DNA from: Candidatus Poribacteria bacterium
GTDB lineage: Bacteria; Poribacteria; WGA-4E; WGA-3G
Reading direction: 5' to 3'
Length of the DNA stretch: 64,000 bases
NCBI GenBank assembly: GCA_022822275.1
Contig: JAJEBZ010000095.1
Location: 14,036 to 78,035 of the forward strand
Shown here: piece by piece, positions 21,036-55,015 of the stretch
How positions within the stretch are numbered: position 1 is the stretch's first letter
Layout: every line of letters starts with the position of its first letter
Notes under the pieces: model-generated
Database searches by the model: none
What the model saw: only the letters and a program-made list of their open reading frames with translations
Told to the model about the DNA's origin: nothing
Position numbers and translations under genes: made by a program

Positions 21036-21103
21036 GATTGATACTATTTTTTCGTCAAGATTGATACTATTTTATAGTAACCTTTAGAATTAATTGGATA
21101 TTA

Positions 21104-21210
21104 TGTTCGGTTCGGTTAGGAAACCGAACCTACCGGGGTTATAGCACAAACTGTTATTTTGTATCCGCATTTGCACAAACTAACAGTTTGTGCTACAAAA
21201 GTGCCCCATT
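21104..21210 (+). repeat. MITE-like element, family C, copy 1.
   Basis: A 'ttatgttcggttcggttaggaaaccgaacc' arm is followed by the palindrome pair 'GTAGCACAAACTGTTA...CACAAACTAACAGTTTGTGCTAC'. The same structure recurs at 28333-28446, with fragments at about 8410-8475 and about 26440-26495. Confidence 0.55.
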
Positions 21211-21246
21211 AATTATATGTTTTAGTATAGTAACTCAAACGGAGAT

Positions 21247-22473: not shown

Positions 22474-22534
22474 TAGATATTTCTCTTTGGTAAATAGTTT
22501 TTTTGGACAGAATTGAGTCGGTAAAACGTCAAGG

Positions 22535-23836
22535 TTAAACTGGCATCACACAACGGAACCCTATGCTGAAACAAGTATACTTAGGTGTATTACGTGAACG
22601 GTATGCTACCCTAACGTTCTGAGGTATACTCACACAGGAACCGCCGCGCATAATCCGAAAAGACCTAATGTCAGTAAAGTTATTCACAGTTTGGACTATG
22701 CTATCACCTGAAAACGGATTATCCCGTGGGGACTGCATATAGAAGTTTTTATTCCATGCGTCCAGGCACCATTCATACACATTGCCTATCATATCATATA
22801 AACCGTAGTTGTTCGGGGGATATTTACCGACAGTTGTTGTTTTACCGATGTATGCGTCATAGTTTAAATAACTTGCATCAATCGTACTTCCCCATGGATA
22901 TTTTTCGCCTATCAAACCACCGCGTGCAGCCTTTTCCCATTCTGCTTCGGTAGGAAGACGTTTGCCCATCCACTGTGAGTATGCCATCGCAGCATACCAA
23001 CTCACCCAAGTTGCTGGATGTTGATCTTCTCCTCTTGGGTAATCGTTTTTATTCCAATTTTTCAGGTATTCCCCATCGTGAAATTCTCTGAGGATATTTG
23101 CTGTATCAATCTTACCCGACTCATACCATTTCAATGGTTTGCGCCATTGCGGATTCTCATCAATAAATGCTTTAAATTGTGCGTTTGTTACTGGATATTT
23201 ATCCATATAGAAAGCATCTACATAAACAGTATGTATAGGTTTTTCATCGTTGAATGCGTCTCTTTCATCACTTCCCATCTGAAATTCGCCTGCAGGAATG
23301 AGAACCATGTCATCTTTTTCTAATGGAATAGAGGGAGTATGCTGCTCCACCGAAACTGATTGTGTCTGTTCAGAAGGGGTGTTTTCTATCTCTGATATAG
23401 ATTCATTGGAAGGAACTGCACCGTTTTGGAGAAGTGCAATATATTCTTGTCGTTTTTCTACGTCTATAAGTACCTCACGAGCCTGATTCAGGAGCGTTCG
23501 CCACTGTTCTTCTGTTCTACCGTCAACACGGGGACGACCGCCTGCACGCAACGAAGCGGTATATAGTTTTTTGTGTGCAACCTCTACGTGGTTCACGATT
23601 GCCAATTCGTCTAAACTTTGAAGTTCGTCAATAGAGAAACCTAACACTTCAAAGTAATTAATCTGTTCACCGATTGTCAGTCCTGCCGCATTGAGGATAT
23701 ACGTTGCTTCATCAATAGTGAGCCCATGTTGCTGTACCCCTAACCGCAAAAACCCCTTGCGTTGTTCATCGGTTATAGTGGGTGAAGCAATTTTGAGTGC
23801 GTCTATTATCGCAATAAAATCATCCCTGTTTGACAT
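22535..23836 (-). CDS. J-like domain / FGE-sulfatase-fold fusion protein, paralog 6.
   Basis: It has the same architecture as the other paralogs, including 'NYFEVLGFSIDEL...HKKLYTASLRAGGRPRVDGRTEEQW' and 'HPATWVSWYAAMAYSQWMGKRLPTEAEWEKAARGG'. Confidence 0.75.
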   Translation of the reverse strand: MSNRDDFIAIIDALKIASPTITDEQRKGFLRLGVQQHGLTIDEATYILNAAGLTIGEQINYFEVLGFSIDELQSLDELAIVNHVEVAHKKLYTASLRAGGRPRVDGRTEEQWRTLLNQAREVLIDVEKRQEYIALLQNGAVPSNESISEIENTPSEQTQSVSVEQHTPSIPLEKDDMVLIPAGEFQMGSDERDAFNDEKPIHTVYVDAFYMDKYPVTNAQFKAFIDENPQWRKPLKWYESGKIDTANILREFHDGEYLKNWNKNDYPRGEDQHPATWVSWYAAMAYSQWMGKRLPTEAEWEKAARGGLIGEKYPWGSTIDASYLNYDAYIGKTTTVGKYPPNNYGLYDMIGNVYEWCLDAWNKNFYMQSPRDNPFSGDSIVQTVNNFTDIRSFRIMRGGSCVSIPQNVRVAYRSRNTPKYTCFSIGFRCVMPV

Positions 23837-26558: not shown

Positions 26559-27839
26559 TTAACTTTTCTGCCACGGGACACTTCCTGCCTTCTGTTTTTC
26601 TTCCTGAAACAAACGTCCCATTTCCCTATAAAGTTTGTTGTTTGTGCGTGAAGTGTCATTTGCTTCCATCGAATCGCTTGATAGGTCATATAGTTCCAGT
26701 GGCTCAAAAGGACTATTGTGTAGCAACTTGATGTCCCCCTGTCGTATTGCGTGTTGACACTGTGCGTGAAAGCGGTTTCCCCCCTCTCTGCGTATCCAGT
26801 ATAGCAGACGATCAGAGAAATCCTGTTTTTCTCCTTGAAGTGTTTGCCAAATAGAACGCCCCTCAATTTCATGTTTGACAGGAATATCAGCGACTTCACA
26901 CACTGTCGGCAAGAGATCCATAAGCATTGCTACCTGATCTGTAACGTGTCCTTCTGGTATGTGGTCTTTCCACATTGCACATGTAGGGACTCGGATACCT
27001 CCTTCGTACATCTGTCCTTTTTGTCCACGGAGCGGACCATTGTTTGCCCCAACCTGCATTGCCCCGCCATTGTCTGACGTGTAAATCACCAGCGTATTGG
27101 AGAGTTGACCGGTTTCCTCAAGTGAGTCCAGCACACGTCCGATACCGGCATCCATGTGTTCAACGAGAGCAACGTATTTTGCGCGTTGATCTGAAATCTC
27201 CGGTTCACGTTTTCGTACTCTTTCAATCCAGTCATCGGGTGGTTGGATAGGTGTATGTGGTGCGTTGTAAGCGAGATAGAGGAAAAATGGATGGGATGTG
27301 TGTGCATGCGTGCGAATAAAGTCTACGCTCCAATCCGAGAAAAGATCTGTGGCGTGTCCTCTCGGATCAATGGTTTCAAAACCGCGCCGCATGTAGTTAT
27401 TGCCATGTCGGAGATGTGTGTAATAGTCGTCCATCATATCGCCGAGGAAACCGTGAAAATGGTCAAACCCGCGTTTGCACGGGTGATTCTCATCTTCAAG
27501 TCCCAAATGCCACTTCCCGATAAGTGCCGTGCGATAGTCTTTCTGTTTCAACATTGAAGGCAGTGTGATTGCGTCCTGTTGAAAATAACCCCAGTTGTTC
27601 TGGGCATGCGTGCGTATTACACCGGGGACACCGACTCTATCAGGATAGCGTCCGGTCATAAGCGATGCACGACTTGGAGAACATACAGAGGAGTTTGCAT
27701 AAAATTGCGTTAAGCGAGTGCCTTCTGCGGCAATTCTATCAATATTAGGGGTTTGGATTGAGGGGCCGTCATGAGCTGATATATCGCCATATCCGTGATC
27801 GTCTGCAAGGATGAGTAAAATGTTTGGTGATTTTGCCAT
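26559..27839 (-). CDS. Cys-type sulfatase (arylsulfatase family) without a signal peptide.
   Basis: 'NILLILADDHGYGD' is the sulfatase N-terminal metal-binding motif. 'SSVCSPSRASLMTGR' contains the C-x-P-x-R formylglycine target. The start at 27839 follows an AGGAGA RBS. The N-terminus MAKSPNILLIL has no hydrophobic leader. Confidence 0.8.
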   Translation of the reverse strand: MAKSPNILLILADDHGYGDISAHDGPSIQTPNIDRIAAEGTRLTQFYANSSVCSPSRASLMTGRYPDRVGVPGVIRTHAQNNWGYFQQDAITLPSMLKQKDYRTALIGKWHLGLEDENHPCKRGFDHFHGFLGDMMDDYYTHLRHGNNYMRRGFETIDPRGHATDLFSDWSVDFIRTHAHTSHPFFLYLAYNAPHTPIQPPDDWIERVRKREPEISDQRAKYVALVEHMDAGIGRVLDSLEETGQLSNTLVIYTSDNGGAMQVGANNGPLRGQKGQMYEGGIRVPTCAMWKDHIPEGHVTDQVAMLMDLLPTVCEVADIPVKHEIEGRSIWQTLQGEKQDFSDRLLYWIRREGGNRFHAQCQHAIRQGDIKLLHNSPFEPLELYDLSSDSMEANDTSRTNNKLYREMGRLFQEEKQKAGSVPWQKS

Positions 27840-28026
27840 AGTTATCTCCTTATGGGGTATGATTTGTATTTCAACTAACAATGCAAAACGCCCAAATTAG
27901 CATGTCGTGCAGCCAAGTTGGGCGTGATGCGTGGTCGCTTCAATATAGGGGCGGGGGCTCCCCGCCCGTTGTTTCAATCTATAAGACATGATAAACAACA
28001 AGAACTCACTATATATAGTAGACTTT

Positions 28027-30384: not shown

Positions 30385-31893
30385 TTACCAATGGGTATAG
30401 AGTAGTACCTCTGATATGATGAGTTGAAGGACAAGCAAACCGGCAACCCAAAAGAAATCACGTTGGGATCGTGTTGTAAGGTATTTGGCTACTGGGATGA
30501 CGAAGAACGGTACCATGAAAATCCAGATACGTTCCACCTCCATCGTGAACCAAGTTGAGAATGTGAAATAGAGTAGTGTTATTAGGAAACCGATGATGTA
30601 TGTATCTGCCTTGTCATGACGTAATATCCAAGGTGTGCGGGTTGGTGCATCTTCTGAATCTGGGGATGTTGTGTTTTGTTTCCACTCCTTGAATGTTTTT
30701 ACAAGTTGTCGTAGCCAGACAGTTGTTATTGGAATACCTACCCCCATCAAGAAAGCAAAAAGATTAGCAAAACTCAGATGGAAATAACGGTCAATGCTTT
30801 CAAAACCTGTTCCCATTCCTGATTCATCTTTTTTGATCGCTGCCCAAAGTGCTTCAAAGGGTTGGAAACCTGTGAGTAAGAATAATAGCACGTAGAATCC
30901 AACGAAGCCGATAGAAGCATATAAAAGCATCTTCAGGTATTGCTTGAACCGGTATCTCTCTAATAATGCGATAACGCACAGGAAGACCCCAATTACCACC
31001 GTTGAATAGGTCATAAACATACCCATTGCAAGCGAAATGCCTGTTAGGAGACTATAAGGACGAAATTTTGTCAATGCGGTTTCTGGATTAGTTTCCTTGT
31101 GTCTTGCTTCGTAAAACAGGTAGAGACTAAGAATTGGAAACACACTAAAAGGGCCGTCCATAGATGTCGTTGTAAACATAACAAAGTTTGGTGTGACAAG
31201 GAATAGCAGCAATGCGTAAAGCGCGACCTTTTGATTGTATAGACGTTCTGCAAGTTTATAGATAGGTATGATGACGAATGCGGTGAATAGGACTGATACT
31301 AACGATGCAGATATGAGATTGTAACCAAATATCTTACTGAAAAGCCACAAGAAAACAACGCCTCCCGGCGGATGAGTGCGTGTGTGTCCAGTTAATTTAT
31401 TGAACAACTCCGGTTTGCTAAAATCCCGCAAAAATGTGCGGAGTCCGAGTTCGTCTATATATGGCACGTCCTCATAGTATTCCAGTCCTGATCGTGTGTA
31501 AGGGTAGAAAAGCGTTAAAATTTGTTCAGTGCCCTGTTCTGTATTTATTTCGCGGAAACCATCAATTTGTGCGACACTGATATTGATGGCAATGAAGCAA
31601 ACAAAGGCAATCAATATCAACTTACGATAACTGATATTGTTCTTAAGGATATATCCATGGCAAAGAAAGAGAAATTCAATACATACAACGAGTGCAGGTA
31701 ATATCCACCAACTCAGATTGAATTCAGGTTGTGCATAGTATGGGACGAAGTGTCTGGCGTAGTTTACTGCCCCTAATCGGAGACTTGTCTCGCGCATGAT
31801 GTATTCCATTACTTTGTGGTATAGCAAGAAAAACAGCGCGACGATATAGATTTGTCGGATAATGGAACGACTTGCTTTTTGTATGTATTGCAT
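30385..31893 (-). CDS. Polytopic membrane protein, possibly a GT-C-fold glycosyltransferase.
   Basis: It has about 12 or more hydrophobic helices and an 'YYEDVPYIDELG' loop reminiscent of ArnT/PMT-type first-loop acidic motifs. The assignment is weak. Confidence 0.3.
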   Translation of the reverse strand: MQYIQKASRSIIRQIYIVALFFLLYHKVMEYIMRETSLRLGAVNYARHFVPYYAQPEFNLSWWILPALVVCIEFLFLCHGYILKNNISYRKLILIAFVCFIAINISVAQIDGFREINTEQGTEQILTLFYPYTRSGLEYYEDVPYIDELGLRTFLRDFSKPELFNKLTGHTRTHPPGGVVFLWLFSKIFGYNLISASLVSVLFTAFVIIPIYKLAERLYNQKVALYALLLFLVTPNFVMFTTTSMDGPFSVFPILSLYLFYEARHKETNPETALTKFRPYSLLTGISLAMGMFMTYSTVVIGVFLCVIALLERYRFKQYLKMLLYASIGFVGFYVLLFLLTGFQPFEALWAAIKKDESGMGTGFESIDRYFHLSFANLFAFLMGVGIPITTVWLRQLVKTFKEWKQNTTSPDSEDAPTRTPWILRHDKADTYIIGFLITLLYFTFSTWFTMEVERIWIFMVPFFVIPVAKYLTTRSQRDFFWVAGLLVLQLIISEVLLYTHW

Positions 31894-32045
31894 TTTGTTT
31901 GATGTTAATGGAAATAGGTGTGCCTATAGGAGCGTCTACTGTGCTACGAAGTATTTTGTGGGTGCCGCTGAGTATGTGTTTAATTTAGTTTAATTTCTTA
32001 TGCGTGTCTACTGAGGTGTGTCAAGGTTGTTGTTCTAATACCTTG

Positions 32046-32279
32046 CTATTCAGTTTTCTGATGTACTGCTATTATATGGGCTAATGTTCGTAATGCGTCA
32101 TTCACGGATTTGGCATCGGGAAATATCTTAGCAACATCTGGATCCAGACGGATCAAGTTTTTGTCCGCGTGGTATCTCTCCGCATATTTTCCGCGAACAC
32201 CTTCACTGACATCATATTCATCAAGAATATCTGCATCATATTGCACTGATGTTGTTGGATTGATATGTTCTTCTTTCAT
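32046..32279 (-). CDS. Small hypothetical protein, possibly an orphan TA-antitoxin-like protein.
   Basis: The 77-aa protein carries 'EYDVSEGVRGKYAERY...LDPDVAKIFPDAKSVNDALR', a motif I recall from small BrnA/DUF4415-like proteins. No toxin partner is adjacent. Confidence 0.3.
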   Translation of the reverse strand: MKEEHINPTTSVQYDADILDEYDVSEGVRGKYAERYHADKNLIRLDPDVAKIFPDAKSVNDALRTLAHIIAVHQKTE

Positions 32280-32525
32280 AAATTTCCGCTATCGTTGATT
32301 ATCAACCCTAAAATTACAATTTAAGTATCACATATATTATAGAAAAAAACAACACAAATTTTGTATGTGGGTGTGTCAAAATATTGTAATCATCAGGATC
32401 AATTTATCAGGTAACGTTTGAGTTTCTGATACACCTTTCGCTTTTTGTTCATGTTTTCTTGATGATTGTTGTGGTTCAGACAAAGCCGCGTAATCTGTGT
32501 TCAGGAGAATCCACTTGAAAAGAAA

Positions 32526-33638
32526 TTACACATCAGATGTCTGCATCTGCTGTGCTGCTTCTAATAATGCATTCGCTAAGAATTGTGGGTTTACCTCATC
32601 TTTTCCCCGGAAGGTACGCACACGTTCACCGTTGACTTTTAGGACAGCCAGTTCTTTACCACCGAGATGGATACCGAGTTTTGCGTTGCGCGTTTCACCC
32701 GGACCGTTGACTTCACATCCCATGACTGCTATATCCATATTAATCCCGTTTTTTTCCAAAAGTTCTTCAGCAACAGCAACGATGTTTTCATAATCTGCAG
32801 TGGGATCACCACGTCCACAGAAGGGACAGGAGATTACATTTAATATATTCTCAGTCAGACCCAATGCACGTAGCAGTTCCTTTGCAGTCAGGACCTCTTC
32901 AACGGGGTCACCTGTGATAGAGATACGAAGAGTGTCTCCAATACCTTCTAACAACAGTGTACCGATGCCGAGGGTGGACTTGACATGTGCGCGGCGCGGC
33001 GTGCCTGCTTCTGTTACGCCAAGGTGCAAAGGATATCGCACTTTCGCGGAAAGCAATCGGTTTGCTTCTATCATCCGAAGTGGGTCACTGGATTTTACAG
33101 AAATTGCGATGTCTGTAAAATCGTGTTCTTCGCAGATATTGACGTGCCGCATAGCACTTTCTACTAACGCTTCTGCTGTGGGTGAGGGATATTTATCTAA
33201 TAGGTCTTTTTCAAGCGATCCTTCGTTGACACCGATGCGAATAGGTATATTTGCGGCTTTGGCAGCGGATAACACTTGTGCAATCCGTTCTTCGCTGCCG
33301 ATGTTCCCCGGATTGATGCGTACCTTTGCGACACCTGCATCTACTGCATCAAGGGCGAGTCTGTAATTGAAATGGATGTCGGAAACAATTGGGACAGGTG
33401 AACGTTTCACGATTTGACTCAGTGCTTTTGCGTCCTTTTCATCTGGTACAGCAACGCGGACGATTTGTGCGCCTGCCTCTGCACACCGTTCAACTTGTGC
33501 TAATGTTGCGTCAATGTCGTGCGTTAGGGTAGTGGTCATCGTCTGGATGGAAACAGGATTTCCACCACCAATCGGCACGTTTCCTACATGTATAGTTCGG
33601 GTAGGTTTCCGATTATCTATTTGTATCAGTTCTTTCAT
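32526..33638 (-). CDS. ispG: 4-hydroxy-3-methylbut-2-en-1-yl diphosphate synthase.
   Basis: 'ISCPFCGRG' and 'MGCEVNGPGE' are IspG/GcpE Fe-S cluster motifs. The N-terminal TIM-barrel region 'IQTMTTT...VRVAVP' fits as well. Confidence 0.9.
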   Translation of the reverse strand: MKELIQIDNRKPTRTIHVGNVPIGGGNPVSIQTMTTTLTHDIDATLAQVERCAEAGAQIVRVAVPDEKDAKALSQIVKRSPVPIVSDIHFNYRLALDAVDAGVAKVRINPGNIGSEERIAQVLSAAKAANIPIRIGVNEGSLEKDLLDKYPSPTAEALVESAMRHVNICEEHDFTDIAISVKSSDPLRMIEANRLLSAKVRYPLHLGVTEAGTPRRAHVKSTLGIGTLLLEGIGDTLRISITGDPVEEVLTAKELLRALGLTENILNVISCPFCGRGDPTADYENIVAVAEELLEKNGINMDIAVMGCEVNGPGETRNAKLGIHLGGKELAVLKVNGERVRTFRGKDEVNPQFLANALLEAAQQMQTSDV

Positions 33639-33732: not shown

Positions 33733-34749
33733 CTATCTTGCTTGAATAATTGAGCCGTAACGAACAATCTGAGTCCGCTGTGTTGGTAACCAATAGGGTG
33801 GGCAATATGCACCAAAAGTTTCAATTGTTGCGACTAATGCAAATCTTTCACAGCCGAAAAGTTCTTGGTTACGTGTGTCAGATATTTCAGGTATTTCTCT
33901 TCGTGCAAAAACGCGGTCGTAGGGAAGATCTTTAACCAATGCTAATCTGTCATTGTTGTAGATCGGTCCAGATAATGGTTTTGCCCAAGTAGCTTTTACG
34001 TCAGGACGTGACCTAACTTTAAAGGAAGCAAGTTGACCATATCCCAATGTAGTTTTCTTACCAAGTCCAATCTGTTCCTTGATAGCAAAATCTAACAACG
34101 TTTCAACTCCCCCTTTATCACCGCGAAAGAAAAAGACGTAACTTTTAGTAAGTGGAAAATAGAGACGATTGTCAAGTGCTTTCGTTGAACCACCACCCGT
34201 ATTCAGTTTATTCTTCAGACCAATCGGACGACCAAACGGTTCGTTTACTCTTCGTCGTAACGGAATAGAATCTACAACTTCAGGATATACCTTAAATTGC
34301 TGACTATTGGAAGTGAAAAATGCTCCTACAGGAATAAGGACATCATCGTTGACATCAACGGGTAAACCTACTGAACAATCATACAGTGGCTTTAACCTTG
34401 TCAACGGAATTTTGCGTAACGGAAGTTCAAAGTCTATCCACATTTCTTGATCACGTAACGCTATATTCCATTGCCATAACAACTGTTGGGAAAGTTCGGG
34501 ATTTCCATTTAAGGCGTTACCCAATGCAGCCCGGAAGGCAACATAACTGAGAAATCCATCAAGCGTAGGAAGCCCAATGACAGGTGCATTTGACTTCTCA
34601 GCAGTAGTCACTGCGGATGTAGCTAAATTTAATCGAAGTTCGTATATTTCCTTTCCTGTCTTCACTCCGAATCGGTACTGTGCATCTTCGAGTATTTTTT
34701 TGATAGACAAATCAGGCTGTAACACTGAATTAGATCTACGCGACTTCAT
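33733..34749 (-). CDS. Cas5-like RAMP (Csf3/Cmr3-like).
   Basis: The N-proximal 'GLPTLDGFLSYVAFRAALG' resembles the Cas5 'P-P-S-T-x-x-G-x-L-R' block. The C-proximal glycine-rich loop is 'GLGKKTTLGYGQ'. Its start is an ATGA overlap with the upstream Cas7-like stop. Confidence 0.5.
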   Translation of the reverse strand: MKSRRSNSVLQPDLSIKKILEDAQYRFGVKTGKEIYELRLNLATSAVTTAEKSNAPVIGLPTLDGFLSYVAFRAALGNALNGNPELSQQLLWQWNIALRDQEMWIDFELPLRKIPLTRLKPLYDCSVGLPVDVNDDVLIPVGAFFTSNSQQFKVYPEVVDSIPLRRRVNEPFGRPIGLKNKLNTGGGSTKALDNRLYFPLTKSYVFFFRGDKGGVETLLDFAIKEQIGLGKKTTLGYGQLASFKVRSRPDVKATWAKPLSGPIYNNDRLALVKDLPYDRVFARREIPEISDTRNQELFGCERFALVATIETFGAYCPPYWLPTQRTQIVRYGSIIQAR

Positions 34750-35708
34750 TCGTTTATCTCTTCAGTTTGAACAGTTAAAACTTCAAGAATATCTTCCCGT
34801 TTTTCTATTAGATAATTTTGGTAGGCACAAACTGCATCTTTGACTGTATCTGGAAAATCTTGCGGATAATTCACTTGTTCAGAACCGACCTTTCCTTGAA
34901 ATTGAGATCGGACTTGTCCATATCCAGCTGCTCTTCTACCCCCGATTGTAGGTTGTTGTAGGAAAGATGACAAACCATCAAATAAGCAACCGAGTTCTAA
35001 CTGATCAACCGGAAATTTAGAGTAGATTTGTTGCAATAACCAAGTTCCAGCAGGAATACATTCAACATAGTAAATCATTTGTGGGGTTTCTTGATTATCC
35101 GTTTGGGGCTCAATATCAACAAAACGTTGTCGTGTAAGATCCTTGCTATCATCCTTACGTGTGAGTGGACCGTCATTAAAGATTAGATTCCTTGCACTTG
35201 TCCATTCATTCATTGGTGGAATAATACTTACATCAAGTGACTCATACATCCCTTGTAGTATTTCCTGTGTCTCCTCAGCACACGGTACAATATGTGTCAT
35301 CGCTAATTTAGATGGAAGCATTCTGTTTCCAAACGCAGCCCCCATTAACCGCATTGAAGGCAACTTCGTGTTGAAATCAGAAATCAGATCACCCGCTTTG
35401 CTTCTCTCAGAGAGTGCTCCTCCACTATACAAGATAGTATAGACATCATTATCATTGAATTTGAGCAGTTGTTTACCTTGATTGCTAAGACGTGAACAGA
35501 GTGCATCCGCAAGAATGTCACGTAACTGACCCCGAAAACTGTTACCAGACAATGCAGGCACAGATACAGGTTTTCCTTTGTAAATGACGCGCATCTGTTT
35601 GAGTTTACTAATATTTCCAATAGTCTCTTCTGTGTGAATGATTGGCTGTTCTGCAAGGTATGCAAATGTTAACTTTACATCAACAAGAGTGTGATTAGTT
35701 TGTTCCAT
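34746..35708 (-). CDS. Cas7-like RAMP backbone subunit.
   Basis: A first beta-strand is followed by 'VPALSGNSFRGQLRDILADAL', which parallels the Cas7/Csm3 'IPGSSxKGxLR' block. The C-proximal glycine-rich loop is 'GGRRAAGYGQV'. The start codon lies 1 nt after the upstream gene's stop, with a GAAGGAG RBS. Confidence 0.55.
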   Translation of the reverse strand: MEQTNHTLVDVKLTFAYLAEQPIIHTEETIGNISKLKQMRVIYKGKPVSVPALSGNSFRGQLRDILADALCSRLSNQGKQLLKFNDNDVYTILYSGGALSERSKAGDLISDFNTKLPSMRLMGAAFGNRMLPSKLAMTHIVPCAEETQEILQGMYESLDVSIIPPMNEWTSARNLIFNDGPLTRKDDSKDLTRQRFVDIEPQTDNQETPQMIYYVECIPAGTWLLQQIYSKFPVDQLELGCLFDGLSSFLQQPTIGGRRAAGYGQVRSQFQGKVGSEQVNYPQDFPDTVKDAVCAYQNYLIEKREDILEVLTVQTEEINE

Positions 35709-35709
35709 G

Positions 35710-36180
35710 CTATGCATCTCCTTCACCGGCATCTTCAAGTAGGAGTTGGGCTTTATCTGCCTCATCTATTCCTCCTCGTGCCTCTTGATAGATTTTTTTC
35801 ATGAGCATTACTAATGGCGTTGTCTCTTCTTTCAAAAGTCTCAATGCCTCATCAACGTGTTCAGTTTTAGACTGATAGATTGCTTCAGTTACTTCTCCAA
35901 GACACCGTAATGTAATGAAATTGGGGGAAATAGCTAACTGCACATCATTCACCAAACTACCAAGTGTTTCTGAATTAGAAGCACGTATGTACTTGACAAG
36001 TACTGAGTATGGATTAAACATTTCCTTTCGCTTAAATAACTTTGGGTCAAGCGGACCTCGCATCAGAAGAAGCGTTTGAACTGCTAACTTGACAGATTCA
36101 TCAAAATCAAGTTTCTCGGTAGCTTGTAGTGCGTCAGTTAAAGTTTCCTCTAAAGTCTTCGACTGGTTTTGTTCTGTCAT
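35710..36180 (-). CDS. Cas11-like small helical subunit candidate.
   Basis: The protein is 156 aa and predicted all-alpha. It sits between the large-subunit candidate and the Cas7-like gene, as the small subunit does in type I-E, III and IV-B loci. An AGGAGG RBS lies upstream. Confidence 0.4.
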   Translation of the reverse strand: MTEQNQSKTLEETLTDALQATEKLDFDESVKLAVQTLLLMRGPLDPKLFKRKEMFNPYSVLVKYIRASNSETLGSLVNDVQLAISPNFITLRCLGEVTEAIYQSKTEHVDEALRLLKEETTPLVMLMKKIYQEARGGIDEADKAQLLLEDAGEGDA

Positions 36181-36191
36181 GGCGAATCCTC

Positions 36192-38561
36192 CTAAATATC
36201 ATCCGTGTTTTGTGGTGGAAATAATTCAAGTTGTTTAGGTTCACTTGTCTTGTTCTTCTCAACTTTTGTCTGTTTTTGCGGGTCTTCCTTTTGTTTTTGC
36301 AGGGCTTGCAAAAGTAGCAGGAGTGCGGGGAATTCCTCAAGAGCATTTGCTGCATTTTGTTTTAACTCCTCATACTGCTTCCAACTATTGGCAAAATCAC
36401 CCTTATCAATATGTCTGTCCCAGAAATCTTCCGCATCCTTAAACGCGATATCCTCTAATGTTGAATTTTTAGGGAGTCGTCCAACATTTATTGTTGCAGC
36501 AGAACTCTCAAGAACAGCTGTAACGGGATCGTTATTAGAAAGTACCAGTTTCAGCCATAGGTTTTTCTGGTTAACTCTTTTTTTCGAACGTTTCAGTTCA
36601 TTGGTCACCTCTGTTAATAGTTTTTCACGTTCAAATAATGCTTTGGTGATATTCACTTGCACATTATCGTCAATCAGTATCCGAATTGCTGATTGAGTAT
36701 CTACGACAATAATGTGAGGAGTCGTTTTAAGTAGTGTATGCTTTCCAGCATGTCTAGCATCTTTTATAGCGGCCTCCATGGCAACTTCTATTGCCGGACA
36801 CACTTTTGTCTCAAATGGGTAGGTTTTCAAATTAACCTTTGAAAATAAAAGGTCAAGGTGCGGGAGCAAATTGCGAACACAATTATTGTTTTCATGAGTC
36901 AAAGCAATAGCACCAAGATATGGTAGTGGAAGGTGTTTATCTGGTACAATCTGCTGCCAAAGTTTCGCAATTACACGACGTGATATTTGCTGAAATAGCG
37001 TGAATTCCTGAGTGGTAACAGTAATACGGTTGAGTTCATTGCGAAAACGTCCGCCTATATCCAAAGGTGGTTGTTCAATTGCTTTCAATTCTTGATCATC
37101 TACAGCAAAGTGTGAAGCGGGAGCGAAAAAAGCAAAAGAACCGCGCAGTGATTTTCGAGTTTTGGATCCTGATCCTGGTGAGTTAATCACATATAAATGT
37201 GTTAATGGGGCAACATCTTCTTCAAAACCTATGAATTCCGTGTCAACAAACTTGCTTGAAAACAATCTTGTTTGAGCAGGAGGCAGTGTTGAAACAAAAG
37301 GTGTACCAGTCAAACGGCAGACTTTCTTATTTGGCGATTTTCTTATTTCAGAGAGCATTTCCGCAGGACGTTGGACAGCATCACTTAACGGGCGAAACAG
37401 ATCATTTTTAGGTGGGCGTTTGCCTAAGCGTCCGGGAACTTCACGCATTTCAATCTGGTTATCAAAAGCAGCTTTGAGATAATCAACACCATCTTTTTGT
37501 GTCAATACGTCAAAGTCCTGTTCAAGTCGATGACGGCTTCTATCAAGCGTCATTTCCTGAATCTCTTGAATCTTTTTAGGGAAGTCATCAGAATAGATTT
37601 GAGATTGCGGAACTGCAATTATTACTGTCCGATTGTCTTGATATACCACTAATAGTTCTGACAACGACACAGTGTTATCCAACATTTCATTCGGTAGCAG
37701 CGGTTTCCCTGTTAGATCTGCCGTAAATGTTGTCTCAAAAGATTCAGACTTGGATCCGGTAACAGGTGTGAGATGGCGCATGACAAAGGTTGTGCCATCC
37801 ATAACATGAAAATGTTTTCCAACTTTGTCCCAGATTTCAGAGTTCGTTGGCGGTGAGGAAAAAGTTATATTTGCCTTAGTATCAAATTTGAATTGGACTC
37901 GTTCAATTGGCACGCGTTCATCATCAATAAATGCCTGTTTTAATGCTTCGGCAACATCTTTTGTCACTACCTCAATAAAAGAATCAGCAATAACTGAGCG
38001 AGTTAACAAGGTAGGTAAAGCGGGTTGCATAGCAAGACTTAATTGAATATAATTTACTGTAGCACCGAGATTGACTTGGTCACTCTGATCTGAAAGTATA
38101 TTCGGTTCAAGGATTTGCAACCGCGGCAACCAATCTCCTGATGCATTTTTTACCCTAAAGTGATGTGTGCAGACTAAACCTTCGCGAATTCCTGTACGAT
38201 GGGCAAGGTTTTGTTCTGCCTGCTTAAAAACGCCGATTCCTGGAATATGATTCCAACGCAGTCCCCTTCCACCGTGATCCCAGTAGAAGGCAGGCTTGTA
38301 TAGATCATGCCAAAGCCACGCGACAAATTCCTCAACACTTGTTGAACCTACAAGTGCATTGAGCATAACATGGAGTGGAAGTGAGGCAAGATTAATGGTG
38401 TCGTGTGTGTCACCTGCTGAAGTTCTCGCTATAGGTCCAAAGTTGAATGATGGCACCCGAATGTTCCTTGTTAAATTTAATTGGTTGATAGTTGCGTTAA
38501 CAATTAGTTGTAAGAATATAGAACCAGTGTGATAATTCCGAATTATTTTAAAGTATACCAT
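36192..38561 (-). CDS. Large-subunit candidate of the Cascade-like module (Cas8/Csf1-like by position only).
   Basis: It is the first gene of the four-gene cluster and is followed 11 nt later by the small-subunit gene. I recognise no motif in its 789 aa. There is no Cas10 GGDD palm, no HD domain and no treble-clef zinc finger. Confidence 0.35.
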   Translation of the reverse strand: MVYFKIIRNYHTGSIFLQLIVNATINQLNLTRNIRVPSFNFGPIARTSAGDTHDTINLASLPLHVMLNALVGSTSVEEFVAWLWHDLYKPAFYWDHGGRGLRWNHIPGIGVFKQAEQNLAHRTGIREGLVCTHHFRVKNASGDWLPRLQILEPNILSDQSDQVNLGATVNYIQLSLAMQPALPTLLTRSVIADSFIEVVTKDVAEALKQAFIDDERVPIERVQFKFDTKANITFSSPPTNSEIWDKVGKHFHVMDGTTFVMRHLTPVTGSKSESFETTFTADLTGKPLLPNEMLDNTVSLSELLVVYQDNRTVIIAVPQSQIYSDDFPKKIQEIQEMTLDRSRHRLEQDFDVLTQKDGVDYLKAAFDNQIEMREVPGRLGKRPPKNDLFRPLSDAVQRPAEMLSEIRKSPNKKVCRLTGTPFVSTLPPAQTRLFSSKFVDTEFIGFEEDVAPLTHLYVINSPGSGSKTRKSLRGSFAFFAPASHFAVDDQELKAIEQPPLDIGGRFRNELNRITVTTQEFTLFQQISRRVIAKLWQQIVPDKHLPLPYLGAIALTHENNNCVRNLLPHLDLLFSKVNLKTYPFETKVCPAIEVAMEAAIKDARHAGKHTLLKTTPHIIVVDTQSAIRILIDDNVQVNITKALFEREKLLTEVTNELKRSKKRVNQKNLWLKLVLSNNDPVTAVLESSAATINVGRLPKNSTLEDIAFKDAEDFWDRHIDKGDFANSWKQYEELKQNAANALEEFPALLLLLQALQKQKEDPQKQTKVEKNKTSEPKQLELFPPQNTDDI

Positions 38562-38620: not shown

Positions 38621-39730
38621 TTACCCTGTCCTTACAAGAGACGTGAGTACCTCAATGAAACGTTCGTTCTGATTCGGTTTGCCGATGGTAACCCTGATTG
38701 CATTTGGGTATCCGTAATCTTTCATTTCTCGAACAATTATACCTTTTTTCATCATAGCTTCAGCCAGTTTTGCCCCAGATTGATTTACAAAAACCATGAT
38801 GAAGTTTCCTTCAGATTTTATATACCGTAACCCTAATTTGTCAAATGCGTTGTAAAGAAAGGATTTGCCTACTTCATTGAGTTCTTTACTTTTCTCAACA
38901 AAGTCAGTATCTTTAAGAGCTGCGCGTGCTGCTGCTTGCGCGACTGCGTTGCAGTTGAACGGTTGCCGAACAGCATTCATCGTGGAGATGATTGAGGCGG
39001 GGGCAATGCCATAACCAACACGCAATCCAGCGAGACCGTAGATTTTGGAAAAGGTACGTGTGATAATGAAGTTGCGTTCTTCCATCACATAAGGCAGTGT
39101 CTGTGGATAGTCGGGATGCGTGACATATTCGTAATACGCTTCGTCAAAGATGACTAAGACATTTTCTGGTACCATTGCCATGAATTGTGCAGTTTCAGGT
39201 GCGGTTACCATTGTGCCTGTCGGGTTATTTGGGTTAGCGATGAAGATAACTTTTGTTTTATCCGTGATGGCTGCTGCCATTGATGATAGATGGTGTGTGT
39301 CGTTTTGCATTGGCACGACAACGGGGGTAGCCCCCGTAATTTTTGCAACAAGACCATAGACGACAAATGCACCTTCCGAATAAATGACTTCGTCACCTGG
39401 ACCGAGGTAAGTATCACCAACGAGTGTCAACACTTCGTTAGAACCGTTAGTTAAGATCAGATGGTCTTCGGTTATGCCGAGATGTTTTGCTAAATCTGCC
39501 TTGAGATAATAGGCATTCCCATCGGGATAAAGGTTTATTTTTGTGGCAATCTCTTTCATTGCCAGTAAAGCTGATGGTGGAGCACCGAGTGGATTTTCGT
39601 TTGATGCCAATTTGATTATATTAGAGATACCGAGTTCGCGTTTGACCTCTTCAATCGGTTTTCCACCCTGATATGCCTTGATAGTTTCAATACCGGGTTT
39701 GGGGGTAAGTTTTTTCTTTGTTGTGTTCAC
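38621..39730 (-). CDS. hisC: Histidinol-phosphate aminotransferase.
   Basis: 'IKLASNENPLGAPPSAL' and 'YGLAGLRVGYGIA', together with the class-II aminotransferase PLP-Lys region 'FSKIYG', identify HisC. Confidence 0.85.
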   Translation of the reverse strand: MNTTKKKLTPKPGIETIKAYQGGKPIEEVKRELGISNIIKLASNENPLGAPPSALLAMKEIATKINLYPDGNAYYLKADLAKHLGITEDHLILTNGSNEVLTLVGDTYLGPGDEVIYSEGAFVVYGLVAKITGATPVVVPMQNDTHHLSSMAAAITDKTKVIFIANPNNPTGTMVTAPETAQFMAMVPENVLVIFDEAYYEYVTHPDYPQTLPYVMEERNFIITRTFSKIYGLAGLRVGYGIAPASIISTMNAVRQPFNCNAVAQAAARAALKDTDFVEKSKELNEVGKSFLYNAFDKLGLRYIKSEGNFIMVFVNQSGAKLAEAMMKKGIIVREMKDYGYPNAIRVTIGKPNQNERFIEVLTSLVRTG

Positions 39731-41422: not shown

Positions 41423-42727
41423 ATGATTAACAGAATTAAACATGCATTCGTAGTATTACTCGTTCTTGGCAATTTTTCTCTGGCACTTTCCGCACCACCA
41501 AAAGTAACCCGTTTTACGTTAAGTAACGGCATTAAGGTTGTCAATCTCTACGTTGAAGATTCCACAGATGTCATTATCTTGAGTTATTTACCCCTTGGAC
41601 TCGCCAATGATGGGAAAGCAAAGGCACAGTGGAGCCATCTGATTGAACACTTGATAATCCGAACCACAGGACCTATTGATTTCAAAACGAGTAGTGCAGA
41701 AACAATGGCAGATAACATGCGCTTGGAGTTTATCGGTAACACTGATAACTGGATGCAGGGCTTGGAACGACACGCAAAATGGCTTTCCGGATTATCATTT
41801 TCAGCAGAAAGTTTAGCTGAGGAGCTGCCGAGAGCTCTATCCGAGATTAAATTTACGGAAGCAAATTTGGGAACTCATAAGTGGGCTTTCGCAGCGTGGA
41901 ATCAAGTCTATCGGCATGGTGAAACCGATGTATCAATGCGTGGTGATGTTCAATCAGCAAAGTTAAGTGAACTACAAGAATATAGCAATCTACATTTAGT
42001 CCAAGCAGACCGCGTCCTTTTGTGTGTCATTGGCGGTGTTGATTCCAAAACGTTAAAAGGGACTATGGAAAAACAATTTGGCACTATCAAATTAACAGCG
42101 AAGACGTTTCCTAATCCAACAGCATCTCCAAACATGGCAAAAGACCAAAACGCCACTTGGGATGTCAATGTAACGCATTACATGGAAACCTACGCGATTC
42201 CTCGTCCTGAAAACGAAGACTATCCCGCATTGTATATAGCGAACATGCTCCTGAACTTAGTTTTCATGCAGGATACACAATTGAAGAAATTAACAGGGTA
42301 CGTTTTCTGTGGTGTTGACCTCATCACGCCCGAGCAGATATACTTATACGTCAGTGCCTCACTCAAGCCTGAAGTAGATATAGAAAAGGTTAAACAGCGG
42401 ATACGAGAGCTGGTGAACCCGTTGAAACAATCCGAAAATAACATACTGGTACCTATGTTTGCTCAATCTCTTTCAACAGAACTCAGCGCACCGCCGGATA
42501 TAACGATGGTAATGCAACAGATACCTGCAGGTGTGTCAACAGCCATAGCACTTGGTAACATTGGTCTGCGGTGGGGGATGCTTGAATATCAATATGGCGA
42601 TACTTTACCAAAGTTTGCAAACTTGCTTGCCAATGTCTCTCCAGCTGATGTTGCCGCTGTTGTCAAACGGTATTTAACCGAAGATAAGCGAATGACATTA
42701 GTTCTCACGCCGCGCGCGTTAAAGTGA
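41423..42727 (+). CDS. Secreted M16-family (insulinase/pitrilysin-like) peptidase.
   Basis: It has a signal peptide. 'AQWSHLIEHLIIRTTG' contains the inverted zinc-binding motif HxxEH, matching the M16 'GxAHxLEHMxFxGT' block. Confidence 0.6.
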   Translation: MINRIKHAFVVLLVLGNFSLALSAPPKVTRFTLSNGIKVVNLYVEDSTDVIILSYLPLGLANDGKAKAQWSHLIEHLIIRTTGPIDFKTSSAETMADNMRLEFIGNTDNWMQGLERHAKWLSGLSFSAESLAEELPRALSEIKFTEANLGTHKWAFAAWNQVYRHGETDVSMRGDVQSAKLSELQEYSNLHLVQADRVLLCVIGGVDSKTLKGTMEKQFGTIKLTAKTFPNPTASPNMAKDQNATWDVNVTHYMETYAIPRPENEDYPALYIANMLLNLVFMQDTQLKKLTGYVFCGVDLITPEQIYLYVSASLKPEVDIEKVKQRIRELVNPLKQSENNILVPMFAQSLSTELSAPPDITMVMQQIPAGVSTAIALGNIGLRWGMLEYQYGDTLPKFANLLANVSPADVAAVVKRYLTEDKRMTLVLTPRALK

Positions 42728-42782
42728 TATAAGAGTATTAGCAGAAATCCAGTCGTTGTGTGACTCATTACGGAGGATTCTG

Positions 42783-44975
42783 ATGGAAAAAGATGACGTT
42801 CAATTGATTCATAACATCTTGTCTGGCGACGATGAGGCGTTCGGTACCTTAGTTCAAAAATACCAAAAGAGTGTTCACGCCCTTGCATGGCGAAAGATCG
42901 GCGATTTTCATTATGCTGAAGAAATTACACAAGACACCTTCCTTCAGGCATATAGGAAACTTTCGACACTCAAGGATTACAATCAATTTGCTGGATGGCT
43001 ATATGTCATCGCCGATCGACTTTGCATTGATTGGATACGAAAGCGAAAACCAGTGTCGCAAGCGTTGGGAGACTCGTCTATGAAAGCGATAGATAAGTTA
43101 ACTTATGAACGTTATGTATTAGAACAACGTGAGATAGAAGCGACTGAATATCGCCAAGAAATCGTTAAGCGACTTCTGAAAAAACTACCAGAGAGCGAAC
43201 GCACAGTGGTGACGCTCTACTATCTCGGTGAAATGACGGCAAAAGAAATTGGCAAATTCTTGGGGGTGTCAGTGAACACTATTACGAGCCGACTCAAGCG
43301 AGCACGAGAACGTCTAAAAGCATCAGAAGAACTCTTGATTAACGATACACTTGGCGGTTTGCAATTGTCTACTAACCTAATGGAGAACATCATGCAGCAG
43401 GTTGCTGACATAGAACCGGTACCGTCTCCATCTGGAAAACCTTTTTTCCCATGGGTGGCTTTCAGTGCAGCCACGGTTTTGGTTATATTGCTGCTCGGTG
43501 TGAGTAATCAATATCTTACCAGATTTCAGAAACCGTATAGTTTTGAGGCACAGTCCGAACCCACTATTGAAATTATAGAGGCACTTACTATTCTTGATTC
43601 TGACGCAAAACCGGCTGTGCAAAGTCAAATTGGAAGGGTTGTCGATCTTGATAAAAGTAATAACAACGGATCACGGTCTTCTGAGGAAGCCTCACCACCT
43701 AATGCATCCGAGAACTTCCCTGTAATTACTGCCTCTAATGGTCCGCCTATAGTGACACGATTTACTTTAAGCAACGGTATCCGAGTTGTTAATCTCCATG
43801 TTGAAAACTCCAAGGATGTCGGTATTTTTAGCTATTTACCTCTTGGACTTGTCAATGATGGGAAAGCAAAGGCACAGTGGAGCAATCTAATTATGCGCCT
43901 ATCAGTCCGAACACCAGGACCCATTGACTACAACACAAGTAGTGCGGAGGCAATGGCTGATAATATGCGCTTGGAGTTTCGGGGGAATACGGATACATGG
44001 ACGCAGGGATTGGATCTCCATGCAAAATGGCTTTCTGGACTACCGTTCACAGCAGAAAGTCTCGCCAAAGCACTTCCGAATGCCTTGGCTGAGTTTGGCT
44101 ATCTTGAAAAGAACTTGGCAACGCATAAATTGGCACATGCAGCGTGGAATCAAGTTTTTCGGCATGGTGAAACCGATATAGTGATGCGCGAGGGCATTCG
44201 ATCGGTGCAACTGAGTCAGCTTCAGGAATATCGCGATCAGCATTTGGTCCAAGCAGGCCGCGTCCTTTTGTGTGTCATTGGTGGCGTTGATTCCGAAACG
44301 TTAAAAGATACTATGGAAAAACAACTGGGCACTATCAACTTACATGAGAAGACTCTTCCCCAGCCAACAGTGTCTCCAGATATAGCAAAAGACCAAACGG
44401 TTACTTGGGATATCAATGTAACGCATTATATAGAAGCCTACGCGATTCCTCGTCCTGAAAACGAAGACTATCCCGCACTCTATATCGCAAGTGTGCTTTT
44501 ACGGTTAGCATTCATACAGGATGTCCAATTAAAAAAAATAACAGGTCACGTTTACTGTGGGGTTGACCTCGTCACGCCTGAGCAAGTATACTTTTACATC
44601 AGTGCTTCACTCAAGCCAAACACAGATATAGAAAGAGTTAAGCAGCGGATGCGGCAGCTAATGAACCCCTTAAAGCAATCAGAGAACAACGCTCAGGTTT
44701 CTGTCCTTGCCCAGTCCCTCTCTACAGAACTCAGCGCGCCACCGGGTATGAAAACACTCATGCAGCAAAAACCGGAAAATATAACAGAGACTCACATGCT
44801 CCTCCAACTTGGAGTAAGTTGGGGCATAGTGGAATACCAATATGGTGAAACCATGCCACAACTTGCGAGTGCTTTTGCAGATGTCTCTGCAGATGATGTG
44901 GCAGATGTTGTCAAGAGGTATCTGACCAAAGATGAACGGATGACATTAGTTCTCACACCGCGGGCACATGAATAG
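42783..44975 (+). CDS. ECF sigma factor fused through a transmembrane helix to an extracytoplasmic pseudo-M16 domain.
   Basis: Residues 1-200 carry sigma70 region 2 ('WLYVIADRLCIDWIRKR') and region 4 ('LYYLGEMTAKEIGKFLGVSVNTITSRLKRARERL'). A transmembrane segment 'FPWVAFSAATVLVILLLGV' follows. The C-terminal 430 aa are paralogous to 41423..42727, but the HxxEH site reads 'SNLIMRL', so all three catalytic residues are substituted. The start at 42783 follows a GGAGG RBS. Confidence 0.65.
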   Translation: MEKDDVQLIHNILSGDDEAFGTLVQKYQKSVHALAWRKIGDFHYAEEITQDTFLQAYRKLSTLKDYNQFAGWLYVIADRLCIDWIRKRKPVSQALGDSSMKAIDKLTYERYVLEQREIEATEYRQEIVKRLLKKLPESERTVVTLYYLGEMTAKEIGKFLGVSVNTITSRLKRARERLKASEELLINDTLGGLQLSTNLMENIMQQVADIEPVPSPSGKPFFPWVAFSAATVLVILLLGVSNQYLTRFQKPYSFEAQSEPTIEIIEALTILDSDAKPAVQSQIGRVVDLDKSNNNGSRSSEEASPPNASENFPVITASNGPPIVTRFTLSNGIRVVNLHVENSKDVGIFSYLPLGLVNDGKAKAQWSNLIMRLSVRTPGPIDYNTSSAEAMADNMRLEFRGNTDTWTQGLDLHAKWLSGLPFTAESLAKALPNALAEFGYLEKNLATHKLAHAAWNQVFRHGETDIVMREGIRSVQLSQLQEYRDQHLVQAGRVLLCVIGGVDSETLKDTMEKQLGTINLHEKTLPQPTVSPDIAKDQTVTWDINVTHYIEAYAIPRPENEDYPALYIASVLLRLAFIQDVQLKKITGHVYCGVDLVTPEQVYFYISASLKPNTDIERVKQRMRQLMNPLKQSENNAQVSVLAQSLSTELSAPPGMKTLMQQKPENITETHMLLQLGVSWGIVEYQYGETMPQLASAFADVSADDVADVVKRYLTKDERMTLVLTPRAHE

Positions 44976-48747: not shown

Positions 48748-49785
48748 ATGTATAAAAGTGCGATGTTGGGGTGCGGCGGCCGCGCAGGTGGCCATGCAAG
48801 TGCCTATCGCTTTGTTAAAGGTGGGAAACTCGCAGCGATCTGCGATATGAACGAAGAACGACTCAACAATTTCGGTGATAGATTTGAAATATCTTCTCGA
48901 TATACAGATTTAGACGAGATGCTTGAGAAGGAGAAGCCGGATCTGCTCCATATTGTGACTGCTCCTGTGCTACGCGGATCCAATGAACGGATTCGGTATT
49001 CGCTGATGAAACAGGCATCAGACCATGGTGTACCTGCTGCGATTGTAGAAAAGCCGATTGCAGTTGAAAGCGAAGATTGGAAACAGATTGCTGGGTTAGC
49101 AGAAGAAACCAAAACGAAGTTTGTTGTCAACACACAGTTGAATTTTCATCCCCAGAATCTTGAACTCAAGAGAGACGTGGCGGAAGGCAAAATTGGTGAG
49201 ATTAAGTTCATAGATGCAAGTGCTCGGAGCACGCCAGTGGATCAGGGACCACATGTTCTGCAGTTAGTTTCTTCCTATATTGATAATTCCAGACCTGTGA
49301 GTGTATTAGGACAGGTTTCAGGGAGAGAACATTTGGACTCAGCCCAACCTTCTCCTATGCATGCGGCGGCACAAGTTATTTATGAAAATGGACTTCATGT
49401 CTCTCTGGCATTTGGACAGGGTATGGGAACGATGGCATCCGATAACCAAGGCATTTATTGCCATAAACGCGTCTTTGTCATTGGAACAGAAGGTTTTGTG
49501 CATTGGCGTTTTAGCAGTTGGGAACGTTCTACACAAAAGGGCGGTTATGAAGGCGGTCCACTCAACTATGGTGAACAAGATGTTCAAGCACAAGGCAACC
49601 TCACTGAGGCAGTTTTTGATTGGCTTGATGATGAGAAAAACGAACATCCGACACACCTCAAACAGTCACTTGCAGAATTCAACCTTCTCTTAGGAATGTA
49701 CCACAGCGGTATAACGAATCAAATTATTGACCTTCCGTTTGATCCACCAGATGGGTTAATGGATTCACTAAGAGAGCAACTATAA
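48748..49785 (+). CDS. Gfo/Idh/MocA-like oxidoreductase, tandem paralog 1.
   Basis: 'MLGCGGRAGGHASAY...IVEKPIAVE' fits the family. It is about 80-85% identical at the protein level to the next two genes. Confidence 0.6.
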   Translation: MYKSAMLGCGGRAGGHASAYRFVKGGKLAAICDMNEERLNNFGDRFEISSRYTDLDEMLEKEKPDLLHIVTAPVLRGSNERIRYSLMKQASDHGVPAAIVEKPIAVESEDWKQIAGLAEETKTKFVVNTQLNFHPQNLELKRDVAEGKIGEIKFIDASARSTPVDQGPHVLQLVSSYIDNSRPVSVLGQVSGREHLDSAQPSPMHAAAQVIYENGLHVSLAFGQGMGTMASDNQGIYCHKRVFVIGTEGFVHWRFSSWERSTQKGGYEGGPLNYGEQDVQAQGNLTEAVFDWLDDEKNEHPTHLKQSLAEFNLLLGMYHSGITNQIIDLPFDPPDGLMDSLREQL

Positions 49786-49913
49786 ATCGGTTTTAGGTTT
49801 TTTTATGTAACGATTAGCGATAGCAGTGAATATGTTTGCTACTACCGCTAATTGTTATATACTGCAGAACATTGCTGTGTTCGTAGTACATAAATGTATA
49901 AGGGATTACTGTT

Positions 49914-50951: not shown

Positions 50952-51088
50952 ATTCAGTCTCTAATTTGTCAGATAGAAAGTTTAACGGTAGATGCAAACA
51001 TATATTCAATTCTGCTAAATAAGTATGAATTGTAAACTTGCGAATAATAGTATTGTAATGATAATAATAAGTATAAGGAGATAATTTT

Positions 51089-54991: not shown

Positions 54992-55015
54992 AGTCAACCC
55001 ATATCAAACTAACAA

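Follow-up and report, generated by a model that had tools for sequence, protein, structure and literature searches.

A bacterial type IV-C-like effector cassette kept as a solo copy on a Candidatus Poribacteria chromosome

Type IV-C is the least understood among the type IV CRISPR-Cas subtypes, and one for which DNA cutting by the HD domain is predicted. Published IV-C loci encode a Cas10-like large subunit (LS) with an N-terminal HD domain and a central Zn finger and without a GGDD motif; arrays and adaptation genes are often absent from these loci, association with type I systems is common, and the loci show no preference for mobile elements (PMC7038947; PMC8175902). Arrays are missing from most IV-B and IV-C loci, and IV-C is experimentally uncharacterised (PMC12669027). 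The IV-B loci used here for reference come from plasmids of the archaea Natrinema and Thermococcus nautili, plasmids that hold the nearest plasmid-borne relatives of the Cas7 protein described below; the loci contain a Csf1-sized gene (224-241 aa), cas11, cas7 and a cas5 of ~250 aa, and the Thermococcus locus also has a PAPS-reductase (cysH-like) gene. Here we describe a cassette of four genes (LS, cas11, cas7, cas5) in a 64-kb stretch of DNA from a Candidatus Poribacteria bacterium (assembly GCA_022822275.1, contig JAJEBZ010000095.1, positions 14,036 to 78,035), hereafter called the window, which covers ~33 kb of flanking sequence on one side of the cassette and ~25 kb on the other. Our preferred reading, to which we give a probability of about 0.55, is that it is a solo copy of a bacterial IV-C-like cassette, encoding a second effector that works on CRISPR RNAs (crRNAs) supplied in trans by a type I array.

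A first-pass annotation, made from the sequence alone, had described the locus as a chromosomal class 1 module of type IV with the gene order large-small-Cas7-Cas5, and had called the third and fourth proteins RAMPs from short motifs. Both statements are borne out. Cas7 matches the PADLOC typeIV_Cas7 profile (Csf2_0_IV) over its full length with E = 2.6e-48, and the Pfam RAMPs family above its cut-off; compared with the PDB, the Cas7 family profile finds Cas7c of 11fs over the full length (3.3e-18) and the IV-B Csf2 of 7jhy (4.9e-11). PDB entries 11fs, 11hc and 11hd are one recent complex, the chains of which are named Cas10IVc, Cas7c, Cas11c and Cas5c; our literature searches found no publication on the 11fs IV-C structure or on the clade described here. 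Cas5 matches typeIV_Cas5 (Csf3_0_IV) at residues 37-329 with E = 7.3e-17, the PADLOC IV-C Cas5 profile at 3e-4, and NCBIfam cas5_csf3 at 2e-6, which is below the cut-off of that family; its PDB matches are weak (IV-A Csf3, 0.013; Cas5c of 11fs, 0.17). Cas11 matches typeIV_Cas11 with E = 1.2e-4, and its top match in the PDB is Cas11c of 11fs, at a non-significant E of 0.2-0.3. Judged by these profile matches, the RAMP assignments of the third and fourth genes are not due to chance, and the four proteins belong to type IV effector families.

The first gene had been described as lacking any recognisable motif, and the module as lacking a nuclease. The first statement does not hold, and the second probably does not. 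The LS belongs to no Pfam or NCBIfam family, and its single profile match, to the PADLOC IV-C Cas10-like profile, is weak (E = 0.004, residues 42-106, 65 residues). A profile built from diverse members of the LS family gives one significant match in the PDB, Cas10IVc, with E = 4.8e-9. This match consists of two collinear stretches, the N-terminal ~200 residues with the HD motifs and the Zn finger; beyond its first ~270 residues and the Zn finger, the LS is not alignable to Cas10IVc by sequence. In the alignment with divergent members, residues H29, H50, D51, K54 (within 'WLxHDxxK') and H70 are invariant down to 26% identity and H98-H99 are nearly so, which makes up a conserved HD-type series H29/H50-D51-x2-K54/H70/H98-H99 that is intact in the window protein; this series aligns with the HDxYKP region of Cas10IVc. 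An AlphaFold2 model of the LS calculated from a shallow alignment of 18 sequences (pLDDT 38.6) was discarded; one calculated from a more diverse alignment reached a pLDDT of 79.2 and a pTM of 0.85, and the best Foldseek matches of this model are also Cas10 proteins, with weak scores. The predicted fold and the homology to Cas10IVc thus support the view that the LS is a Cas10-family protein, and the conserved motifs together with this homology point to an N-terminal domain of the HD nuclease type. The invariance of the HD motifs speaks in favour of nuclease function, and the LS probably carries a nuclease.

Four abutting minus-strand genes had been placed between ispG and hisC, and we recovered these four co-oriented open reading frames (ORFs) at the same positions, together with the motifs quoted from them (Table 1). 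Two starts needed attention. The LS ORF was called up to an ATG at 38561 (36192-38561, 789 aa); because a GTG codon at 38456 has an AAGGA Shine-Dalgarno sequence 8 nt upstream, and because more than 100 LS homologues of 725-760 aa can be aligned only from this codon onward, the LS most likely starts there, and its length is to be corrected to 754 aa (LS residue numbers are counted from this GTG). The cas7 ORF was called as 34746-35765 (339 aa), and only 1 nt separates the cas11 stop codon from the start at M20 (35708). The LS and cas11 genes are 11 nt apart, and the cas7 stop overlaps the cas5 start in a 4-nt ATGA.

Table 1. Genes of the cassette and the genes that flank it, in window coordinates.
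Feature	Position	Strand	Length	Remark
Large subunit (LS), Cas10-like, N-terminal HD-type motifs	36192..38456	-	754 aa	from the most likely start, GTG 38456
Cas11-like small subunit	35710..36180	-	156 aa	
Cas7 backbone subunit, Csf2 family	34746..35708	-	320 aa	from M20
Cas5, Csf3 family	33733..34749	-	338 aa	
ispG	32526-33638			flank of cassette; Pfam
hisC	38621-39730			flank of cassette; Pfam

The distribution of the cassette and its surroundings in other genomes carry our reading of its function. An exhaustive HMMER search with the LS in 1.84 billion representatives gave 43 relatives, ~10 of them full length, and did not reach canonical IV-C Cas10 proteins at a library-wide E of 1e-3 or less; the full-length LS proteins form ~10 clusters at 50% identity, all members of which are annotated 'hypothetical'. 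We collected 54 loci (L001-L054), 16 from a scan of species-representative genomes and 38 from a scan of metagenome contigs. The hosts are Candidatus Poribacteria and several lineages of Chloroflexi (Chloroflexia, Oscillochloris trichoides DG-6, Ca. Ribeiella, Ardenticatenaceae and Caldilineaceae); the contigs are in many cases of Mb scale, and the cassette is chromosomal. The order LS-Cas11-Cas7-Cas5 is identical in 39 of the 39 complete loci, even at 26% LS identity. In an uncultured Chloroflexaceae metagenome-assembled genome (L013, 9980-12676), LS and Cas11 make up a single open frame of 899 aa, which we read as a natural LS-Cas11 fusion, although it may contain an internal start.

The cassette lies inside or beside type I-B or I-D systems in 20 loci, and arrays are present in 9. 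The closest non-syntenic relative of the window copy, with 82% LS identity, is on a 5.9-Mb Poribacteria chromosome (L001), where the order is Cas8b-Cas7b-Cas5b-...-Cas3b-[cassette]-Cas4b-Cas1b-Cas2, and an array comes next, in which CTTTTAATCGCACCAGTTTGGAATAGAAAC is repeated at least 67 times. After the cassette, L018/L019 have a truncated Cas1b, then Cas2 and ~65 repeats of the repeat family seen in L001, and in L002 a consensus σ70 promoter and six repeats begin 77 nt after cas5 and precede a Cas1b fragment, the end repeats of this short array being degenerate. The 30-nt repeat family, with the consensus CTTTTAATCG[AC]ACCAGT[AT]TGGAAT[AT]GAAAC, thus adjoins the cassette in three Poribacteria contexts, and relatives of the same clade as the window copy, at 74-82% LS identity, sit in I-B loci and adjoin arrays of 6 to at least 67 spacers. 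In Chloroflexi, L020 reads Cas10d-Cas7d-Cas5d-[cassette]-Cas3d-Cas6d-Cas4d-Cas1-Cas2-array; I-D genes are also found at L008 (which has a Cas3d fragment), L012+L016, L025-L028, L037, L039, L042, L045 and L054, and L043 has I-B-like genes with a 24-repeat array. Such nesting between type I interference and adaptation genes suggests that two effectors share one array and one Cas6. We considered the possibility that the cassette is the sole effector acting with Cas3, in a type I/IV hybrid (L020, L037), but for L020 this idea was dropped, since the same loci also encode true Cas10d, Cas7d and Cas5d, or Cas8b, Cas7b and Cas5b. Separate true Cas10d, Cas7d and Cas5d genes adjoin the cassette in L020, L008, L028, L042 and L045; the cassette is therefore a second effector and not the I-D one.

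Some of these loci have peculiarities of their own. A truncated Cas1b of 131-133 aa, corresponding to the C-terminal third of the protein, is followed by Cas2 beside the cassette in L002 (15092-15493) and L018 (5160-5558), and is also seen as several members of Cas1b clusters (P0286, P0287, P0322, P0331). Either the short form is conserved as such, or it has arisen by decay more than once. On another Poribacteria chromosome (L006, 13148-14031) cas7 is interrupted by an insertion of ~880 bp without in-frame ORF, which may be a small insertion sequence (IS), a miniature inverted-repeat transposable element or an intron, and the cassette is probably inactivated there. In Ca. Ribeiella danica (L009, 8755-9072) six tandem units of 43 nt, a period too short for CRISPR, lie ~1 kb upstream of the LS gene.

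Solo copies of the cassette are found in 11 loci within the available sequence: the window, L003, L004, L017, four other Poribacteria and three Chloroflexi. L003, L004 and L017 are syntenic with the window (hisC-cassette-ispG-PMT2). Small differences exist within this arrangement: ~630 nt without long ORF between ispG and the PMT_2 gene (window 31894-32525) are absent from L003, and L004 has ~2 kb of additional sequence between hisC and the LS gene. The first-pass annotation had raised, as a refuting case, that a complete cas operon with its array lies just outside the window. The cassette does lie within a few kb of type I genes in L001, L020 and others; nevertheless, the flanks of the window copy, ~33 kb and ~25 kb long, hold just housekeeping and carbohydrate-metabolism genes, no cas gene is present within 10 kb on either side in the syntenic L003 and L004 (L017 spans just ~3 kb on the hisC side), and the subunits match type IV profiles rather than type I or III ones, so that membership in an ordinary type I or III locus within ~25 kb is hardly credible. 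The solo status is therefore real, yet it is derived from a system linked to arrays: the window copy now stands alone because it has lost its type I neighbourhood.

The solo cassette is intact, and purifying selection acts on it: for its four genes, the ratio of nonsynonymous to synonymous substitutions (dN/dS) is 0.13-0.24 when the window is compared with other Poribacteria. This bears on the idea that the cassette is a non-functional relic decaying after loss of the surrounding type I-B locus and array. Decay does occur elsewhere in the family, as seen in the truncated Cas1b of L002 and L018, the degenerate array ends of L002, the Cas3d fragment of L008 and the broken cas7 of L006. In the window, on the other hand, all four ORFs are intact with coupled junctions and the catalytic-type residues are in place, which together with dN/dS values of this order between solo copies of different species argues against a relic; moreover, four genomes or more retain the solo arrangement even though synonymous divergence of the genes on either side has reached saturation. 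We regard decay of the window copy as quite unlikely.

The same comparison revealed an unexpected feature of synonymous divergence. We compared window positions 33733-38456 with the flanks 30385-33638 and 38621-39730, against L003, L004 and L017. In the same genome pairs, dS is 0.23-0.64 for the cassette genes and 1.3-2.2 (saturated) for hisC, ispG and PMT2, that is, 3-5 times lower in the cassette than in the flanking genes, and nucleotide identity is ~0.86-0.97 for the cassette and 0.73-0.85 for its flanks, with edges that are not sharp. The low dS implies either more recent exchange of the cassette among Poribacteria or a constraint on synonymous sites. Pushed further, it could mean that the cassette is a selfish or addiction-like mobile unit, recently exchanged and maintained by repeated horizontal replacement among Poribacteria rather than by benefit to the host, and it goes in the same direction that the cassette is present in two phyla, at 52-60% identity, and in a number of genomic contexts unrelated to each other. 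Against such a unit, no integrase, transposase or repeat boundary adjoins the cassette, none of its relatives is on a viral contig, and a plasmid search, made with Cas7 only, gave just distant IV-B-like relatives at most 29% identical; the lack of sharp identity edges does not fit either, and exchange is in any case compatible with an ordinary defence role. A selfish cassette therefore appears very improbable.

The window itself contains no sign of a guide source. The first-pass annotation had reported no array, cas1, cas2, cas6, cas3 or DinG in the 64 kb, and we arrive at the same result: Tandem Repeats Finder, a direct-repeat search, a k-mer periodicity scan and Rfam detected no CRISPR-like array, the 30-nt repeat of the family has left no remnant at up to 3 mismatches, and Pfam scans found no cas1, cas2, cas3, cas4, cas6, DinG or cysH among 44 of the 47 called ORFs, three short ones (103-250 aa) being outside the Pfam-identified set. 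A candidate mini-array at 269-377 was rejected, as it consists of two 42-nt repeats that are bracketed by other repeats and are unlike the family repeat. The element in question (228-450) is made of direct repeats at 269-310 and 336-377, with a period of 67, enclosed by two further kinds of repeat, inverted ones (GTACGGAATCACGGA and TCCGTGATTCCGTAC) and tandem ones of 9 nt (234-258 and 408-439), and could be a small mobile or regulatory element.

The main alternative for an isolated cassette of this kind is a ribonucleoprotein that would be independent of arrays and form, as IV-B does, on non-CRISPR cellular RNA, with a role outside adaptive immunity, for example in RNA binding, in regulation or as a guide sponge. 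The lack of any array, cas6 or adaptation gene in 64 kb fits with this, as do the stable position between housekeeping genes in four genomes, the existence of eleven solo loci overall, the persistence of purifying selection in solo copies and the loss of the Zn finger in the window clade; in addition, the IV-B complex loads heterogeneous RNA (PMC7937560), and array-less IV-C loci have been viewed as possibly non-defence (PMC8175902). Other properties speak against it. Relatives of the same clade, at 74-82% LS identity, adjoin arrays and sit in I-B loci, the invariant HD motifs argue for a nuclease role, neither cysH nor Csf1 is present, and a missing array next door is nothing unusual in IV-C, nor in many type III loci, which draw on arrays in trans (PMC12669027). 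We find no positive evidence for the earlier proposal of a new complex co-opted for a non-defence role, the relatives being found inside complete I-B and I-D loci with arrays, and an array-independent ribonucleoprotein seems rather unlikely. A more specific variant, in which the Poribacterial solo cassette has become independent of any array and, kept by purifying selection at a housekeeping locus, encodes an HD nuclease complex that uses non-CRISPR RNA, or no guide, in a host function, is in our opinion unlikely as well. If true, the cassette would encode a domesticated, nuclease-bearing class 1 effector, a kind so far undescribed, and the low dS would then reflect a constraint on the mRNA or repeated allelic replacement.

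We therefore return to a second effector fed by a type I array, which would work as follows. On a crRNA processed by Cas6, the four proteins would build a filament like that of Cascade or Csm, with Cas5 at the 5' handle, Cas7 as the backbone, Cas11 as the minor filament and the Cas10-like LS at the foot. The target, a nucleic acid and probably DNA, would be bound through base-pairing with the complex and cut by the LS at its HD site. The crRNAs and Cas6 would be shared with the type I system and, in the window genome, we assume that a type I-B locus and its array elsewhere on the chromosome supply crRNA in trans; type I-B Cas1b is very common in Poribacteria. Several observations weigh against this proposal. 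No array, cas6 or type I gene is found within 33 kb upstream or 25 kb downstream of the window cassette, nor within 10 kb on either side in ten other solo loci (an eleventh, L017, spans ~3 kb on the hisC side), which is why supply in trans is an assumption, and no Cas1b on a chromosome with a solo cassette appears among the cluster members listed, although grouping at 90% identity conceals which genomes these members come from. Cleavage is a predicted step because no IV-C biochemistry is published (PMC12669027); no Pfam HD model matches the LS, and the hhalign comparison of the LS with the Cas3b HD domain is not significant. With Cas10d from the same loci, hhalign aligns the Zn finger alone (E = 0.002, probability 15%). 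Cas11 and Cas5 have no significant match to the solved IV-C chains. Finally, divergent LS members have in mid-protein a CxxC...CxxC pair ('CRLCGSPF...CPLCRIY') that aligns with the finger of Cas10IVc, and in the window clade this finger has decayed to 'CRLTGTPF...APLTHLY', with one Cys left. This decay is a secondary loss within the family, of a trait that does not define the subtype.

The present analysis defines a compact and well-conserved bacterial clade of IV-C-like cassettes that exists in three informative states: nested in type I-B, nested in type I-D, and solo. The suggested two-effector arrangement resembles that of type III systems riding on type I arrays, and the nested cassettes lend themselves, as they occur in nature, to the question of what is gained by having a IV-C complex. 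The solo copies, conserved across species, offer a clean test between action in trans and an array-independent role, and the structural link between the LS and Cas10d bears on the relation of types I-D, III and IV.

The remainder of the window encodes, according to Pfam, sulfatases, FGE-sulfatase paralogues, glycosidases, chaperones and oxidoreductases, and no tRNA was found in it. Seven tandem FGE-sulfatase (SUMF1-like) paralogues occupy 14147-23836 and 26559-27881, with a sulfatase gene near; one of them is broken up into a pair of ORFs, 19662-20201 and 20262-21035, with a tandem duplication of 23 nt next to it (21027-21073). An ORF of 739 aa (42756-44975) fuses an extracytoplasmic function (ECF) sigma factor, with regions 2 and 4, to a Peptidase_M16_C-like domain, an unusual combination, and directly follows another M16-like gene (41423-42727). 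Three tandem paralogues of a 345-aa GFO/IDH/MocA oxidoreductase lie at 48748-52126, and four tandem proteins of 604-909 aa at 52322-63223, each with a terminal FlgD-Ig domain at its end and three of the four also with a Por-secretion-tail domain. A DDE transposase (IS; 5788-7104) and an orphan N6/N4 DNA methyltransferase (10763-11743) are 23-28 kb from the cassette and have no evident link with it.

How, then, does the cassette relate to described systems? Compared with the I-D effector, the LS has no detectable sequence homology to Cas10d (PDB 7sbb) outside the finger, its partners are Csf2 and Csf3 instead of Csc2 (Cas7d) and Csc1 (Cas5d), matching type IV profiles and not I-D ones, and Cas11 is encoded by a separate gene instead of being produced by internal translation. 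The proposed likeness to type IV-B, as exemplified by the complex of Mycobacterium sp. JS623 (7JHY), holds for the gene order large-small-Cas7-Cas5 and for the lack of an array in the locus, and is strengthened by Cas7, which is 27% identical to archaeal IV-B Cas7 (87-100 bits) and at least as close to it as to Cas7c; Cas5 has a weak similarity to its archaeal IV-B counterpart in the C-terminus only, and that of Cas11 is not significant. The likeness does not extend to the LS, a homologue of Cas10IVc: Csf1 is only ~225-240 aa long, and pairwise comparison detects no similarity between it and the 754-aa LS. The CysH-like companion, which had been noted as missing, is indeed absent, since the IV-B cysH-like protein as query gave no tblastn match in the window or in L001-L054. 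Moreover, IV-B is mostly plasmid-borne and without nuclease motif, whereas the present family is chromosomal, and Cas5, with 338 aa, resembles Cas5c (306 aa) in length more than it does the Csf3 of IV-A and IV-B (220-254 aa). With type IV-C the cassette shares the same four subunits, with a Cas10-like LS in place of Csf1, and the lack of DinG, cysH and GGDD (none in the window LS, and no conserved GGDD-like column in either family alignment), and like IV-C it is often array-less, chromosomal and associated with type I systems (PMC7038947). It differs from described IV-C in its hosts, which are bacteria (Poribacteria, Chloroflexi) whereas IV-C is described mainly from archaeal hyperthermophiles; in its LS, which is very divergent, measures ~730-760 aa against 587-608 aa and has lost the central Zn finger in the window clade; in Cas11 and Cas5, barely detectable in comparison with the solved IV-C chains; and in being systematically nested in I-B and I-D loci, with solo copies conserved at a housekeeping site. 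In conclusion, the locus belongs with IV-C rather than with IV-B.

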